Shown: in pieces, positions 2,627 to 64,000 of the stretch
How the letters are laid out: every line of letters starts with the position of its first letter
Position numbering within the stretch: the stretch's first letter is position 1
Source of the DNA: an uncultured Gammaproteobacteria bacterium
GTDB lineage: Bacteria > Patescibacteriota > Patescibacteriia > Magasanikbacterales > GWA2-37-8
Assembly: GCA_964496095.1 (NCBI GenBank)
Contig: CAZBWU010000001.1
Span: 48,617 to 112,616, forward strand
Length of the DNA stretch: 64,000 nucleotides
Direction: 5' to 3'
Position numbers and translations under genes: made by a program
Notes under the pieces: model-generated
The model's database searches: none
What the model saw: only the letters and a program-made list of their open reading frames with translations
What the model was told of the DNA's origin: nothing

Positions 2627-4417
2627 ATGGTCTTCCAAATCCCGGAAACAATAGAGAAAAAGCTATCTGTAAAGCTAAAAATAGCGATGGTAATAGGGTC
2701 GGTGGTTGTACTCGTAGGCGCGACTTTTGCCGGTTATTATTTTGGGCAAAAGAAAAATGCTGTACCGCCACAGGTAGTTCAAAATAATGATAATACTGTA
2801 CCGCCAACAGGTACGGTAGGTGAGATTGTTCCAGATCCTGTTACTGTGCCAGACACAGAAAATAGTACAGAACCTAAGAAGTACGTTTTTCCTACCACTT
2901 CTTTGCCACAGGAGATTGATAAGAAAATTGTCTGGCTTGCACAACCAAAACAGGTTGAGAATTTGAAGTGGTTTGAAGGAAGTGAATATGAGATAAATGC
3001 CTCATATTATGAGGTCGGTAATTTTGAGCACCAAGGAGAAAGCGGTAGAATCATTCTTGTGCAATGGGGTGTTGAAGGTATGGGCCCCCCGCCCTATTTT
3101 CATATATTAAACTTTAAAAAAGAAATAGTTATCTTGGTAAATTATTCTGATATATATCTCCCAAAAGACAGCTCTGATTATAGTGATCTAGGTTATATAG
3201 CACAATCTATAAGTCCAGATTTCAAACAGAAGATTAAATTAAATACGGATTTTCAGATGAGCTCATTAGATTTTCCGAAAGTGATTAAGGGTTCAAATGA
3301 TAGACAGGTTCTGCAGTCGTCAGATGTTTGGTATGGATTATCACAGGAATCTAGTAATTTTACTAGTGCTTCAGATAAAAAAATAACTATATTGTCTGAT
3401 TCAAAATTTGGACAGATTTACACTTCGGTAAATACAGGCGCATTTTATTTGTACGGGGCTCATGGAGTGGAGGTAACCTATGTTCTAGTGCCTGATTTTT
3501 TTAATAGGAGTAATCATTTGGCGCAAATTGTTTGGAATGATGGTTCTTGGAATGGGTATGAATATAGCTATACCGATCGGGGAGGATGTGGTGCAAAAAA
3601 TTATATTTCTGTAATGACTTCTTCCATAAATGTGGCTACAGATTTGGAAGCGGTGGGCAAGACAAGCAAAGGAGATAAAGTCTATGAATTAAAGGATAAA
3701 AACCATTTGTTGTTAGAGAATCTTTATACCGACGGATATTTCCCTAACCAAAATGGCAATAAAGTTTCTTACGAAGAATTTATTACTTTGCGGCCATTAA
3801 TATTTTGGGTAGATCCATTTGGCAGATTGATCAAGTTGCAGAACATGCGTTTTGTGCCACAAGCCGAATGTGGTAAGCCAGTCATTTATTTATACCCAGA
3901 AAAAACATCTATTGTAGATGTAAAAGTTGAGCCCCAAGGTGGAATGACTGTTTCTGATCCGTTTTATAATGGCGGTTGGCAGGTAAAGGCAGGGCCAAAT
4001 GGCCAATTAACAGAAACAAAATCAGGCAAGCAATACCCATATCTTTTCTGGGAAGGAAGGGGCGGATTGTACCAAACACCAGAAAAAGGTTTCTTAATTA
4101 AAAAAGAGAATATAGCCAAAGAGCTTCCAGAAAAACTGACTCAACTTGGATTAAACGCCAACGAAACCAAAGACTTTATGGAGTTTTGGTATCCACGCAT
4201 GCAGGTTAAACCGTATTATTTTGTGACTTTCCTTGGTACTCAACAGATGAACCAATTGGCGCCTCTCACTATCAATCCTCGACCAGACACAGTGGTGAGA
4301 ATCCTTATGGACTTTACTCCGCTTGATAAGCCAATTGATGTTTTGCCACTATCACTTGGTCGTACACCGGAAAGAAAAGGGTTTACAGTCATTGAGTGGG
4401 GCGGTGTGATTCGGTAA
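2627..4417 (+). CDS. Membrane-anchored exported protein, function unknown
   Basis: A long ORF with a single N-terminal TM helix (IAMVIGSVVVLVGATFAGYYF) followed by a large Pro/Thr-rich extracytoplasmic domain. No motif I recognise. The next gene starts 13 nt downstream. Confidence 0.6.
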   Translation: MVFQIPETIEKKLSVKLKIAMVIGSVVVLVGATFAGYYFGQKKNAVPPQVVQNNDNTVPPTGTVGEIVPDPVTVPDTENSTEPKKYVFPTTSLPQEIDKKIVWLAQPKQVENLKWFEGSEYEINASYYEVGNFEHQGESGRIILVQWGVEGMGPPPYFHILNFKKEIVILVNYSDIYLPKDSSDYSDLGYIAQSISPDFKQKIKLNTDFQMSSLDFPKVIKGSNDRQVLQSSDVWYGLSQESSNFTSASDKKITILSDSKFGQIYTSVNTGAFYLYGAHGVEVTYVLVPDFFNRSNHLAQIVWNDGSWNGYEYSYTDRGGCGAKNYISVMTSSINVATDLEAVGKTSKGDKVYELKDKNHLLLENLYTDGYFPNQNGNKVSYEEFITLRPLIFWVDPFGRLIKLQNMRFVPQAECGKPVIYLYPEKTSIVDVKVEPQGGMTVSDPFYNGGWQVKAGPNGQLTETKSGKQYPYLFWEGRGGLYQTPEKGFLIKKENIAKELPEKLTQLGLNANETKDFMEFWYPRMQVKPYYFVTFLGTQQMNQLAPLTINPRPDTVVRILMDFTPLDKPIDVLPLSLGRTPERKGFTVIEWGGVIR

Positions 4418-10010: not shown

Positions 10011-10484
10011 ATGACAACTAGTAATATGCTTCCAAAATTTATTCTCATCCTCCCTAATATCCGTAGTGGTCACAATGTGGGGGCTATTTTTCGGACTGCT
10101 GATGGTGCGGGTGTAGACAAGTTATACCTCACCGGCTATACGCCTTGCCCGCCACATGTGCAGATTGACAAGGTGTCGCTGGGCGCGGAAAAGTGGATGC
10201 CTTGGGAGTATCGCAAACAAACTGGCAGACTGCTTAAAGAATTAAAACAAATAGGGTATAATATAGTGGCTCTAGAACAAACCAAAACGAGCCAAGACAT
10301 ATTTGGTTTTCAGCCGCAATTTCCGCTAGCCTTGGTTTTGGGAAATGAAAAAACCGGTGTTTCCAAAGCCTTGCTCAAGTATTGCGACCAGGCGATTGAG
10401 ATTCCAATGCACGGCAAGAAAAACAGTCTCAATGTCAGTGTGGCGGCGGGTGTGGCGATGTACGTTATAAAAAATAAAATTTAA
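10011..10484 (+). CDS. SpoU/TrmH family RNA 2'-O-methyltransferase
   Basis: SPOUT motifs are present (GHNVGAIFRTADGAGVD, LVLGNEKTGVS, EIPMHGKKNSLNVSVAAGV). Confidence 0.8.
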   Translation: MTTSNMLPKFILILPNIRSGHNVGAIFRTADGAGVDKLYLTGYTPCPPHVQIDKVSLGAEKWMPWEYRKQTGRLLKELKQIGYNIVALEQTKTSQDIFGFQPQFPLALVLGNEKTGVSKALLKYCDQAIEIPMHGKKNSLNVSVAAGVAMYVIKNKI

Positions 10485-10486
10485 AA

Positions 10487-10648
10487 CTGTCATCCCGAGG
10501 GTTACGCCCGAGGGATCTCTGTCCCAACTGTCATTCCCGCCACAGCGGGAATCCAGACAATTTAATTGGACGCTGGATACCCGATCAGGTCGGGGATTAC
10601 AACGACGAACGAACTGGACAGAGATTCCTCCTTTGTCGTCGGAATGAC
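10487..10648. repeat. Cluster of short palindromic interspersed repeats (GTCATyC...GAATGAC family), at least 3 units in both orientations
   Basis: Units ctgtcatcccgagggttacgcccgagggatctctgtcc, ctgtcattcccgccacagcgggaatccagaca and an inverted unit ending ggaatgacaa. Related units recur at 33832, 37916, 59113 and 63484. Confidence 0.75.
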
Positions 10649-10659
10649 AATAAAAAATT

Positions 10660-11382
10660 ATGCAATCAACCATTCAATTATTTCATTACTTCTACAACAA
10701 TCTACCGCCACTTGTGCCGGAAGATGTGGTTTTGTCTATGAAAAAAGAATTGGATGATTTGGAAAAAGACCCAAATGTCACTTTGGCCGAAGTCGAAGAC
10801 AGGATGGTCAGATTTGGCTATGAAGTTTGGCCTTGGAATCAAGCCTTCAAATATTTTTTAAATAATGTTGAAGAAAAAATGGGTGACCATTTTTTGTTGC
10901 CTAGAATGAGTGAAGGATTGCGCGAAAAATACCTTAATTTCCAAGCATTAAATGGCACGCTCAAAGATCTGCAAACCGGCCGACCCGCTTCGTTTTTTAC
11001 TTCAGAAGAAAGGGCTGAATTGTGCGAAAAATTAGTAGATATGCGTTTGCACTTGAAAGAATATGTAAAGAGAGATCTGCTCGGAGTAAACCGAGAGGCC
11101 TATTTAGAAAAAGTAGATGAGTATAAAAACTTAGTAGAAAAAATAAAGTTTAATTTGGAATCTTTGCGTAATTTTGTAGAAAAGGAAGAAGACGGATCCG
11201 TTTTGATTGCGGAAATAAATACAAAGATTCGAGATTTTGAACATGGCCTGTGTCTACTTGGTACGGAGTTGGATTTTGAAGCAGTTTGCCAAGTGCATGA
11301 TTTTTTTGTAGGACGCAAAAAAGATTTGAATAGAATGAGAGGAATCAATACGCCAATAGAGGTTAATTTTTATAATGATTAA
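10660..11382 (+). CDS. Hypothetical protein
   Basis: A 240-aa ORF with a charged, helical composition. No recognisable motif. Confidence 0.45.
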   Translation: MQSTIQLFHYFYNNLPPLVPEDVVLSMKKELDDLEKDPNVTLAEVEDRMVRFGYEVWPWNQAFKYFLNNVEEKMGDHFLLPRMSEGLREKYLNFQALNGTLKDLQTGRPASFFTSEERAELCEKLVDMRLHLKEYVKRDLLGVNREAYLEKVDEYKNLVEKIKFNLESLRNFVEKEEDGSVLIAEINTKIRDFEHGLCLLGTELDFEAVCQVHDFFVGRKKDLNRMRGINTPIEVNFYND

Positions 11383-13664: not shown

Positions 13665-14301
13665 CTAAGGCTTTAATTAAATTTTCATGAGCTACCTCTG
13701 TGTCAGACGCAGACATAATAGCGCTACCAACATATAATTTTTCAGCGCCAGCGTCAACTACTGATTTGATTGTATTTTCGTTTACACCACCATCAACTGA
13801 GCAAACTATATCTAGGTTTAATTTTTTGAATTCTTTTATTTTTTCTAACACCTCTTCTACAAAGACAGAACCTTGATGTCCTGGGTGTACTGTCATAAAC
13901 AATATTTCGTCTACCAACTTGAGGTAAGGAAGAACCTGTGATAATGGGGTTTCAGGATTGAGGGCAATACCAGCTTTCCAACCATGTTTGCGGATATGAC
14001 GAACACATTCTTCCGGGTCAACATCTGATTCTATATGAAAGACGGCGCTAGTCACATTGGCCACATCGGTCCAAAGTGCCATTTCTGACATTGGGTCTTT
14101 GACCATCAGATGCAGTTCAAAATAGGCTTCGGAGTTGAGTTCGTTGACCTGCTCACGTTCGGTAAAAGATGTGTTGTTAACAAAAAGTCCATCCATGACA
14201 TCTATTTGGATAGAAGAAAAATCTTTTTCTACTTTTTTCAGTTGTTCGCTAAATGTGGTAAGACTGTTTGTGAGGATGGCGGGGACAATTAAGGGGATCA
14301 T
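13648..14301 (-). CDS. rpe: Ribulose-phosphate 3-epimerase
   Basis: IVPAILTNS, DVMDGLFV, MTVHPGHQGS and SVDGGVN motifs of the Rpe TIM barrel. Confidence 0.85.
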   Translation of the reverse strand: MIPLIVPAILTNSLTTFSEQLKKVEKDFSSIQIDVMDGLFVNNTSFTEREQVNELNSEAYFELHLMVKDPMSEMALWTDVANVTSAVFHIESDVDPEECVRHIRKHGWKAGIALNPETPLSQVLPYLKLVDEILFMTVHPGHQGSVFVEEVLEKIKEFKKLNLDIVCSVDGGVNENTIKSVVDAGAEKLYVGSAIMSASDTEVAHENLIKALGETTI

Positions 14302-37915: not shown

Positions 37916-38016
37916 TTGTCATTCTGAGTGAAACGAGGAATCTCTGTCGGGATAATTTAAAATTGACAGGGATCCTTAACGGAGTTTATCCCCTTTAGGG
38001 GGTTCAGGATGACAGT
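37916..38016. repeat. Short palindromic interspersed repeat units (GTCATTC family)
   Basis: ttgtcattctgagtgaaacgaggaatctctgtc followed by an inverted unit ending caggatgacag. Confidence 0.7.
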
Positions 38017-54960: not shown

Positions 54961-55440
54961 TTAATAATGATAATTTCGGCCATTATTTATAGTCATAGCC
55001 CGATAGATTTGTTCCCACAAAAACACCCGCGCCATTTGGTGGGTAAATGTCATTGAAGATAAAGAAAGTTTTAGGTTTGCAAGTTTGAGAACTGATTCGT
55101 CCAGCCCAAGAGGTCCGCCGATAATAAAAGTAAAACTGTTAAATTGTTGATTGGATAATTGGTTAAGTTGCGTGGCGAATTGGGTAGAAGAAAAACTTTT
55201 GCCGTGTTCGTCTAGTACGATGACGAAGTTATCTTTTATTTTATTAAGAGTAGTGATAATTTTTTCTGCCTCTTTTTGCTTTATGCTTTCCGGCTTGTCT
55301 TTGTCAGAAAAAGATTCTTCTCGTAGTTCGTAAATATTAACTTTTGCCCAAGTTTGGAGACGTTTAAGATATTCAGCTTCCGCTTCTTGCCAAAATTTTT
55401 CTTTGAGTTTTCCTAGTACTATTAGGTTTAGGTGTAGCAT
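54961..55440 (-). CDS. rlmH: 23S rRNA (pseudouridine1915-N3)-methyltransferase RlmH
   Basis: SPOUT/RlmH pattern (LIVLGKLKEK...FVIVLDEHGK...FTFIIGGPLGL...LSLSSMTFTHQMARV). 159 aa. Confidence 0.85.
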   Translation of the reverse strand: MLHLNLIVLGKLKEKFWQEAEAEYLKRLQTWAKVNIYELREESFSDKDKPESIKQKEAEKIITTLNKIKDNFVIVLDEHGKSFSSTQFATQLNQLSNQQFNSFTFIIGGPLGLDESVLKLANLKLSLSSMTFTHQMARVFLWEQIYRAMTINNGRNYHY

Positions 55441-59112: not shown

Positions 59113-59298
59113 CTGTCATTCTGAGTAAAGCGAAGAATCCCTGTCTGTACAATTGTCATTCCGACCGAAGTGGAGGAATCCCTTAAACAAGGTATTTGCA
59201 TGTACATAGTATAAGGGATCCCTCGACGGAGTTTATACCCTTTAGGGTGCTCGGGATGACAAACGGACAGAGATCCTTCATTTCATTCAGGATGACAA
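59113..59298. repeat. Cluster of short palindromic interspersed repeats filling the carA-carB spacer
   Basis: ctgtcattctgagtaaagcgaagaatccctgtctg, ttgtcattccgaccgaagtggaggaatccc, and inverted units (ggtgctcgggatgacaaacggacagagatcc, cattcaggatgacaac). Confidence 0.75.
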
Positions 59299-62506: not shown

Positions 62507-62657
62507 ATTTGACAGGTTTTTATTTTTTCGGTAAAGTAAAAATATTATGAAAAATATGCAAGCACAATCCAGATTTTTCTTTAGCTTTTACCGCTCGGTG
62601 AAGGCTATGTTTGCATCTGTGTAGAATTGAACTAAAAAATGCATTTCAAACAAAAGC

Positions 62658-62690
62658 CTTCGCCAAAAGCGGAGGTTTTTTGATTTTTGA
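62658..62690 (+). terminator. Rho-independent terminator downstream of carB
   Basis: CCTTCGC-caaaa-GCGGAGG (with one G-U pair) followed by TTTTTT. Confidence 0.55.
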
Positions 62691-62699
62691 AAATTAGAA

Positions 62700-63060
62700 A
62701 AAATTGTAAGGTTGTCGAGTGGTGTCCATGACACCTGGTCCCCAGGATATCGCGACGGTCGCGATGTTCGTGGATACCACTGGTAACTTTCTCGGTTGGG
62801 GGATCCCATGTTTATTCGGAATCCAAGGCTTGATATTGAAGAGACGGCAGCTGTACAGGCCACTCAACAGGATGGCGTCGGCCTTCTGTTGCCAAATGTG
62901 GCAAAGCCGCCTCCGGTTGAGGAGAGTATGCCGTCCTCCGAGCCCGGGCGCTGGCACGGGGTCGATCCGTTCGAGCTGAAGAAGTAGCCTTCTGGGTTTG
63001 TTGCCCTGAGGCAAGAATAGTAGTTCTTAGTAGTTGTTCTTTTTTCCGCCAACTCCGGGC
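62700..63060 (+). other. GC-rich, hairpin-dense island of unknown nature (structured RNA or a degraded foreign gene)
   Basis: Local GC is far above the surrounding roughly 35%. It has many perfect short hairpins (GGTGTC/GACACC, ATCGCGAC/GTCGCGAT, TTGCCA/TGGCAA, CTCC/GGAG) and no convincing long ORF. The longest + ORF is 63 aa (62796-62987). It is bounded by terminators at 62658-62690 and 63166-63200. Confidence 0.35.
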
Positions 63061-63165
63061 GGTATAAATATTCGGAGCAAGGAGTAGTCATGAAAATGAT
63101 TCGTGCGCCACACACGTCAAAGTGGCATCTCAATTTGTGTATAAGTTATTTTGTACACAAATAAG

Positions 63166-63200
63166 GCAAAAAACTGTTCGAACAATCGAACGGTTTTTTG
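63166..63200 (+). terminator. Rho-independent terminator closing the island 2 transcription unit
   Basis: AAAAAACTGTTCGAAC-aat-CGAACGG followed by TTTTTTG. Confidence 0.6.
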
Positions 63201-63254
63201 TTTCACTTATTTTTTGTATAAAAAATAATGATGTGATAATATGCTTGTTGCTAT

Positions 63255-64000
63255 ATGATTAATTTTCAATCAGAATTAAACCAAGAACAATTAGAACCAG
63301 TTTTGCACGGCGACGGGCCGTGTTTAGTTTTGGCTGGAGCTGGAAGCGGTAAGACAAGAGTTATTACCTATCGGGTGGCTTATTTGTTAGAGCAGGGAAT
63401 TAATCCGGAAAATATATTGTTAGTCACTTTTACCAACAAAGCTGCGGATGAAATGAAACGCAGAGTTGAGAAGTTGACGACACTGTCTGTCATTCCCGCT
63501 ACAGCGGGAATCCAGACAACCGTACACTGGATTCCCAATCAAGTTGGGAATGACAAAAGTGTAAAACTGCCTTGGGCAGGCACTTTTCATCATATCGCTT
63601 ATCGTATTTTACGAATTTATGCGCCGATTTTGGGCTACAAAAATAACTTTTCAGTACTAGATAGCGATGATAGTGAGACTATTTTGAAACTCTGTGCCAA
63701 GCCATTCAAATCAGATACTGGTCGGGTCAAGTTTCCTTCGGCGCGGGTTTTACAATCAATTATTAGTTTTGCGCGTAATTCAGAAACCACAATTGATAGC
63801 GTACTAGATCTCAAACATCCGCAATGGCAAATTTTTAGCGACAATATAAAAACGATTGCTCGTGAGTATGAACAAAAAAAGAAGGAAGCCAATGTGATGG
63901 ATTTTGATGATTTGTTGGTAAATTTTTTGTTGCTACTTAATCATGAACCAGCATTAAAAAAATATGCCGAGCAGTTCAAATATATTTTGGTAGACGAGTA
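63255..64000 (+). CDS. ATP-dependent DNA helicase, UvrD/PcrA/Rep family (N-terminal part; continues beyond the window)
   Basis: Helicase motifs: Walker A LVLAGAGSGKTRVITYRVAYL, Ia LLVTFTNKAADEM, then GTFH, and motif II ILVDEYQ at the window edge. The frame is open to position 64000. Confidence 0.9.
   Translation, partial: MINFQSELNQEQLEPVLHGDGPCLVLAGAGSGKTRVITYRVAYLLEQGINPENILLVTFTNKAADEMKRRVEKLTTLSVIPATAGIQTTVHWIPNQVGNDKSVKLPWAGTFHHIAYRILRIYAPILGYKNNFSVLDSDDSETILKLCAKPFKSDTGRVKFPSARVLQSIISFARNSETTIDSVLDLKHPQWQIFSDNIKTIAREYEQKKKEANVMDFDDLLVNFLLLLNHEPALKKYAEQFKYILVDE
63484..63556. repeat. Palindromic interspersed repeat unit inserted in-frame within the helicase CDS
   Basis: tgtctgtcattcccgctacagcgggaatccagacaa...gggaatgacaaa lies inside the open reading frame. 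It adds about 25 aa (SVIPATAGIQTTVHWIPNQVGNDKS) between helicase motif Ia and the GTFH motif without a stop or frameshift. Confidence 0.7.

Follow-up and report, generated by a model that had tools for sequence, protein, structure and literature searches.

Helicase gene and its surroundings

The DNA analyzed here, which we call the window, is a single stretch of 64 kb that ends within a gene for a UvrD/PcrA-type SF1 helicase. The reading frame of this gene begins with an ATG at 63255 and remains open over 248 codons, up to the window edge. Its translation showed a match to the Pfam family UvrD-helicase (PF00580, E = 3e-55), and, among proteins of known structure, PcrA, UvrD and Rep were its best relatives in a sequence search of the PDB. 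The Walker A, Ia, GTFH and VDE motifs were all found in one frame. We also compared the gene with that of L129, one of its two closest relatives, and obtained a dN/dS of 0.043 at a dS of 0.84 over 217 codons outside the loop discussed below, a value that is an average over both lineages. Therefore, the helicase gene is under strong purifying selection. A preliminary description of this DNA, made from the sequence alone, had reported that an inserted repeat leaves the gene without stop or frameshift and its motifs in frame to the window edge; the open translation and the low dN/dS bear this out for the first 248 codons, at which the window ends. The substitution pattern indicates that the gene is constrained, and it bears only indirectly on whether the protein functions with the insert.

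The spacer between carB and the helicase gene (62507-63254) is 748 nt long in the window. It contains a GC-rich island (62700-63000; 52-64% GC, against 39% for the window) with short ORFs only, and a 63-aa ORF within this island (62796-62984) had no Pfam match. No tRNA or tmRNA was found in the spacer, and neither the spacer nor the element described below had a match in Rfam at gathering and E-value thresholds. In L130, the other close relative, 1 nt separates carB from the helicase gene; the helicase gene of L129 instead has a TrmB-like ORF upstream of it. The spacer DNA is specific to this lineage.

Structure of the inserted element

The helicase reading frame contains a palindromic element, which was found by inverted repeats and by its fold (Table 1). 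The preliminary description had recognized a palindromic repeat in this ORF, between motif Ia (TFTNKAA) and the GTFH motif (motif Ib), and the translation places it there. The location that it gave, 63484-63556, is nearly right, and the exact ends are corrected in Table 1. In full, the element reads TGTC-ATTCCCGC-TACA-GCGGGAAT-CCAG / ACAACCGTACA / CTGG-ATTCCCAA-TCAAG-TTGGGAAT-GACA, so that it comprises two 8-bp hairpins. The TGTC tag is located at 63488-63491 and, on the minus strand, at 63552-63555, and the CCAG that follows the stem in both units is located at 63512-63515 and at 63527-63530, the latter on the minus strand. The two halves form a terminal inverted repeat (TGTCATTCCC/GGGAATGACA) and an inner inverted repeat (GGGAATCCAG/CTGGATTCCC). 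In the right unit, the stem has changed at two positions on each side (GC/GC to AA/TT) and is thereby preserved; the loop of this unit is 5 nt long. Folded as single-stranded DNA, the element gave -19.6 kcal/mol (z = -6.4). A contig of a separate Logan assembly (L001, from SRR10036081) showed 100% identity across the left junction and stops within the element at 63553.

Table 1. Coordinates of the helicase gene, the inserted element and the related repeats in the window
Feature	Position	Strand	Remarks
UvrD/PcrA-type SF1 helicase gene, 5' part, 248 codons	63255..64000	+	Continues past the window end; translation, Pfam, PDB matches, Foldseek
Palindromic element, inverted dimer of two TGTC-tagged hairpin units, tags outward, CCA tails inward	63488..63555	.	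68 nt; inverted repeats, DNA fold, missing from L129 and L130
Left unit: TGTC tag, 8-bp stem ATTCCCGC/GCGGGAAT, 4-nt loop TACA, tail CCAG	63488..63515	+	
Spacer of 11 nt between the units, ACAACCGTACA	63516..63526	.	Intergenic copy has 5 nt more here
Right unit, inverted: TGTC-ATTCCCAA-CTTGA-TTGGGAAT-CCAG on the minus strand	63527..63555	-	Inverted repeats
Flank ACACT, complementary to AGTGT at 63558-63562	63480..63484	.	Imperfect outer extension of the palindrome; part of the predicted fold
Element-encoded peptide V79-D100 (VIPATAGIQTTVHWIPNQVGND), inside the 24-residue net insertion	63489..63554	+	Translation
Intergenic copy of the helicase dimer, nested within another TGTC-tagged dimer	10529..10601	.	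73 nt
Outer TGTC-tagged dimer TGTCATCCCGAGGG...GGGATCTCTGTCC ... GGACAGAGATTCC...GGAATGACA	10488..10649	.	Inverted repeat; takes up the spacer from ORF 10011-10484 to ORF 10660-11382
Intergenic TGTC-tagged dimer TGTCATTCTGAG...ATCTCTGTC ... GGATGACA	37917..38014	.	
Two TGTC-tagged dimers, one nested in the other, between carA and carB	59114..59297	.	Inner dimer 59154-59261

Copies and related dimers in the window

We searched the window for the core of the element, GTCATTCCCGC-N4-GCGGGAATC, which specifies 20 bases. It occurs twice (at 10530 and 63489), against an expectation of zero from 100 shuffles. The preliminary description had proposed comparing the element with intergenic copies at 10528-10560, and the likeness to the copy at 10529-10601 proved to extend over the whole dimer: both units and the spacer show 80% identity, with a 5-nt indel in the spacer, and a 28-nt stretch of the helicase element differs from the intergenic copy by 1 base. 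The two copies have the same asymmetry: the loop is 4 nt long in the left unit and 5 nt long (CYTGA) in the right one, whose stem is altered. This suggests that the whole dimer was copied as one unit.

In addition to the two copies of the helicase dimer, the 64 kb contain four other TGTC-tagged dimers, so that five of the six are intergenic and one is genic. At 10488-10649 and at 59114-59297, the inner dimer is centred in the outer one, and the nested pairs occupy the entire intergenic spacers. Two short-read contigs of SRR10036081 (L124 and L001) both end within the 59114-59297 cluster, and a search by way of the neighbouring genes for the remainder of the helicase gave only short Logan contigs, which stop at the repeats. 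Two other TGTCAT...ATGACA pairs, at 13891-14001 and 55048-55225, were considered as further dimers and rejected, as they look like chance occurrences; the reading for hairpins covered the pair at 13891-14001, which has none.

Evidence for a derived insertion

We scanned metagenomes for close relatives of the helicase and found two. The L129 helicase, from a Hainich groundwater metagenome, shows 94% amino acid identity outside the loop, and that of L130 shows 85% identity; both have the short form of the loop. In the DNA alignment, the gap is exactly 72 nt in L129 and in L130. Accordingly, the net gain is 24 codons, not the 25 codons (75 nt) given in the preliminary description, whose proposal that orthologs would lack the segment is upheld by the same gap. 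The 72 nt correspond to the 68-nt element plus 4 nt, and the flanks of the loop are unlike those of L129. Neither a target-site duplication nor a clean pre-insertion sequence could be recovered from the flanks of the element or from the empty site of L129.

Next, we examined the length of the loop from TFTNKA to GTFH (the Ia-Ib loop) in 121 sequences, consisting of the window protein and 120 database relatives, mostly from Patescibacteria (Magasanikbacteria, Parcubacteria and Uhrbacteria). The loop is 45 aa long in the window protein and 21 aa long in 90 of the 121 sequences, as it is in L129 and L130, and its length ranges from 20 to 46 aa across orthologs. At the position of the loop, PcrA has 7 residues against 31 in the query. 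The empty site in an ortholog of 94% identity is clean evidence, and the comparison as a whole shows a derived insertion, gained in this lineage of Patescibacteria after its split from the lineage of L129. The age of the insertion is bounded only as later than that split, which, given the dS of 0.84, was fairly old.

Effect on the protein

Of the three reading frames of the element on this strand, one has a stop and two are open. The frame in use is one of the two without a stop, so that no stop interrupts the gene here and its product is longer by 24 residues. Structural modelling had been proposed in the preliminary description as a check on the insert, and we built an AlphaFold2 model from 30 orthologs for the part of the protein in the window (mean pLDDT, 87.9). 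The pLDDT fell below 50 only at residues 80-85 and 87-99, which form a coil between a helix at 61-79 and a strand at 108-110. The insert is thus placed in a loop that is predicted to be disordered, between two confidently predicted secondary-structure elements, and the rest of the fold is confident. A Foldseek search with the model matched PcrA, UvrD and Rep with a TMq of about 0.7. The model fits an insert that is tolerated as a predicted disordered loop between the helix of motif Ia and the strand of motif Ib. We infer that the protein tolerates the insert as a passenger and has not acquired a new functional module with it, and that insertions of this kind can persist in the Ia-Ib loop.

Recurrent insertion in the Ia-Ib loop

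We also analyzed the unbiased set of 121 proteins for longer insertions. Over the first 248 residues, 13 insertions measure 7 aa or more, and 11 of these are located in the Ia-Ib loop. Where the DNA of a loop insert was in hand, eight of nine inserts were hairpin-forming. The insert of L002 is a single NTS-like hairpin (CTGGATTCCCGCTTTCGCGGGAATGA), that of L131 is a TGTCAT...GGATCTCTGTCC...ATGACA dimer resembling the outer dimers of the window, and those of L003, L125, L126, L127 and L128 are GC-rich hairpins; the 31-aa loop of L136 is long and has no hairpin. The inserts in relatives come from different, unrelated families, and close relatives do not share them. This concentration may reflect either a target preference or tolerance of this loop. 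It could be that the Ia-Ib codons of patescibacterial PcrA/UvrD are a true hot spot for the integration of hairpin repeats, and that the concentration of REPs in repair genes that handle single-stranded DNA might show a functional link, for instance elements that target or tune an enzyme affecting their own spread; we regard this as unlikely.

Related helicases of the CPR also contain TGTCAT...ATGACA dimers in frame at other positions. Such dimers were seen in L125 (1879-1956) and in L135 (about 1432-1509), after window residue 126 and near residue 225, and peptides encoded by them include CHPEQSGGSL...DSSQRFGMT and VILNGVKDP.... Separately, in L002, a TAG at 1563-1565 replaces the Glu codon of DEYQD (VD*YQDT) and the frame continues beyond it; this TAG could be a sequencing error, a sign of a pseudogene or something else.

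Assignment to a repeat family

It has previously been reported that CGTC-tagged REPs consist of a tag (CGTC, TGTC or CCTC), a stem of 8-9 bp beginning with AT, a loop of 4-5 nt and a CCA tail, and that they occur mostly as inverted dimers without an associated transposase (Di Nocera et al. 2013, PMC3733652). In the same study, the family CGTC-1 was equated with dRS3 of Neisseria and RPE-6 of Rickettsia conorii, and intragenic CGTC units or dimers were found to encode 20-30 aa in frame, many of them in genes of replication and repair, among which are UvrD/REP helicases. The helicase element carries TGTC, an accepted variant of the tag, at both ends, and a short unpaired CCA follows the stem in both units. 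The left unit has the 8-bp stem, with complementary A and T in positions 1-2, and the 4-nt loop, and the right unit is a variant, with an 8-bp stem but a 5-nt loop. The element is also repeated within the 64 kb, mainly in the form of inverted dimers. Thus, it fits the definition of CGTC-1.

The Neisseria repeat corresponds to NTS, which a study of 2025 on Ssn defines as a sequence of 28 nt (CGTCATTCCCGCGMAVGCGGGAATCYRG) and shows to be bound and, in single-stranded DNA, cleaved by SsnA, a GIY-YIG nuclease (PMC11893778). According to that study, NTS-ssnA-NTS resembles an insertion sequence, and NTS sites modulate the uptake of transforming DNA in Neisseria; it makes no mention of intragenic or in-frame copies or of Patescibacteria. 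The left unit agrees with the NTS consensus at 25 of 28 positions, and its three mismatches (positions 1, 13 and 15) exceed the one that the authors of PMC11893778 allow. The SRM search pattern of the Ssn paper, as transcribed here, did not match the hairpin of the element. A literature search for such repeats in Patescibacteria found nothing specific.

To see how widely the hairpin occurs, we scanned one genome per species for TCATTCCCGC-N4-GCGGGAATCCAG and found at least 120 loci in many phyla. The matches listed include Proteobacteria, Chloroflexota, Planctomycetota, Nitrospirota, Neisseria, several CPR groups and a nanoarchaeote. Among the matches listed, 17 are strict inverted pairs of 67-135 nt with variable centres and, often, complementary flanks. 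Around many NTS-type dimers in other phyla (L004-L123, e.g. L075, L113, L052 and L023), the 8 nt outside both tags are mutually complementary (for example, CCATTTTG...CAAAATGG). These flanks may mean either that the palindrome reaches into non-conserved sequence or that the dimers lie within palindromic targets, and dimers inside palindromic targets have been noted for H. neapolitanus (PMC3733652). In L105, an NTS-type dimer (3981-4059) lies within an open frame of 394 aa, with 302 aa to its left and 65 aa to its right, and reads VIPAKAGIQ...LDSRFCGND; it may be another in-frame case.

Alternative explanations

The variation of the Ia-Ib loop among orthologs, together with the long loop of L136 that lacks a hairpin, raises the question of whether the helicase of this lineage natively has such a loop, which resembles the repeats by chance. 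We find this almost inconceivable, given that a 28-nt stretch is only 1 base off the intergenic copy where none is expected by chance, that the 80% similarity spans the whole dimer, that the gap in the 94%-identical L129, and likewise in L130, is exactly 72 nt, and that the segment matches a pan-bacterial NTS-type hairpin. A related concern is that the repeat collapsed into the gene during metagenome assembly, because short-read contigs do break at these repeats (L001 within the element, and L124 and L001 within 59114-59297). However, an independent assembly reproduces the left junction at full identity, the sequences on either side of the element are parts of one gene, read in one frame and collinear with orthologs, and similar in-frame inserts are seen in unrelated assemblies, so that an artefact of this kind is extremely unlikely. 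It is also very unlikely that the helicase is a decaying pseudogene in which the frame stays open through the insert by luck. Although only 248 codons are visible and several related MAG helicases appear as two ORFs, the dN/dS is 0.043 at a dS of 0.84 and the N-terminal motifs are all intact. The splits in the MAGs concern other genomes, and what was seen at those that were checked, namely stretches of N, single stops or a homopolymer run where the frame breaks, suggests faults of assembly; we considered whether the element had induced them and rejected this on the same breaks.

The remaining alternative is that the insert has been kept for a function, either as a peptide interaction or regulatory loop near the motifs that bind single-stranded DNA, or as a nucleic acid, serving as a site of Ssn-type cleavage or as an mRNA hairpin by which helicase expression, or recombination at this gene, is tuned. 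Its attraction is that the stem of the right unit was kept by changes on both sides, that hairpin-forming inserts occur in the same loop in several lineages, that REP inserts are reported to be frequent in DNA-repair genes (PMC3733652) and that NTS sites affect DNA uptake in Neisseria (PMC11893778). Upkeep of the stem is nevertheless expected for any element that spreads via its hairpin, the loop inserts come from unrelated families and are not shared by close relatives, and the peptide is predicted to be disordered. The element was also considered as a terminator, and this was rejected because no terminator-like site overlaps it. On this balance, we judge retention for a function to be quite unlikely.

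Proposed origin and significance

We consider it highly probable that the element is a hairpin-forming, non-coding, inverted REP dimer of the CGTC-1 type that was copied in frame into the helicase loop, adding 72 nt and thereby 24 predicted disordered residues, that it is carried as a tolerated passenger and that it spreads through hairpins in single-stranded DNA. In this process, the whole dimer was copied into the codons of the loop between the motif Ia helix and the motif Ib strand, and its spread would presumably rely on an enzyme supplied in trans that acts on the hairpins. To our knowledge, no enzyme other than Ssn (GIY-YIG) has been found to bind and cleave a hairpin of the NTS type, and we know of no demonstration of transposition by it. 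A role of Ssn in mobility is a hypothesis of the authors of PMC11893778. A motif scan and tblastn found no GIY-YIG/Ssn-like gene or other candidate mobilising gene in the 64-kb window; L024 and L109, two loci from the hairpin scan, do have GIY-YIG ORFs that adjoin this hairpin.

Events of this type have been known since the work on the Rickettsia RPEs and, for this family of hairpins, since 2013 (PMC3733652). What is new here is incremental, namely that the host belongs to the CPR and that a single loop of the helicase is used recurrently. The finding extends protein-coding palindromic repeats (RPEs and CGTC-type REPs) to the ultra-small Patescibacteria, and one concrete sequence joins the literatures on Rickettsia RPEs, CGTC-tagged REPs and Neisseria NTS/Ssn. 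In addition, the use of one loop by unrelated hairpin repeats provides a natural set for studying how a protein absorbs insertions and whether such repeats choose their targets. On the practical side, such repeats break short-read assemblies and inflate the variation of gene length in CPR MAGs.

Comparison with known systems

The element has the terminal inverted repeats of a MITE, but neither of the two copies is bordered by direct repeats, and we saw no parent IS. REPINs are REP doublets mobilised by RAYT transposases. As in REPINs, the copied unit here is an inverted doublet of hairpin repeats that can be folded as one long hairpin (PMC3116915). Unlike this element, REPINs are GTAG-tagged and associated with tyrosine transposases of the IS200/IS605 type, whereas CGTC repeats have no transposase (PMC3733652, in which the link between RAYTs and REPs is also described).

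The likeness to dRS3/NTS of Neisseria lies in the core ATTCCC-N8-GGGAAT, the GTCAT head, the CCAG tail and a wide distribution in bacteria, and the differences are the three mismatches and the lack of an ssnA-like gene within the window. The host of the RPEs, Rickettsia, is an obligate intracellular alphaproteobacterium. The helicase element resembles the RPEs of this genus in being palindromic, in frame in a conserved gene, missing in orthologs, translated into a loop peptide and also present in intergenic copies, although the classic RPE-1 is a longer palindromic insertion (PMC3733652).

The closest agreement is with CGTC-1 (PMC3733652), which shares with the element the TGTC variant of the tag, the 8-bp stem that begins with AT, the 4-nt loop and the CCA tail, as well as the arrangement as an intragenic inverted dimer that encodes 20-30 aa in frame in a DNA-repair helicase. 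There are also differences. The host belongs to the Patescibacteria/CPR, which are absent from the five phyla given for CGTC repeats in PMC3733652, and the spacer is 11 nt long instead of the usual 20-100. The element is a heterodimer, with the 5-nt loop and altered stem in its right unit, and the UvrD/REP cases in PMC3733652 are single units located elsewhere in the protein (residues 278-288 and 914-923). The preliminary description had compared the insert with the Rickettsia palindromic elements in its behaviour, and this comparison gains support from an in-frame insert that is absent from orthologs and from the equivalence of CGTC-1 and RPE-6, which is taken from the statement in PMC3733652. 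Given that the element fits the definition of CGTC-1, that CGTC-1 has been equated with RPE-6 and that in-frame dimers of this family are known, the analogy with the RPEs is supported and arguably amounts to homology.
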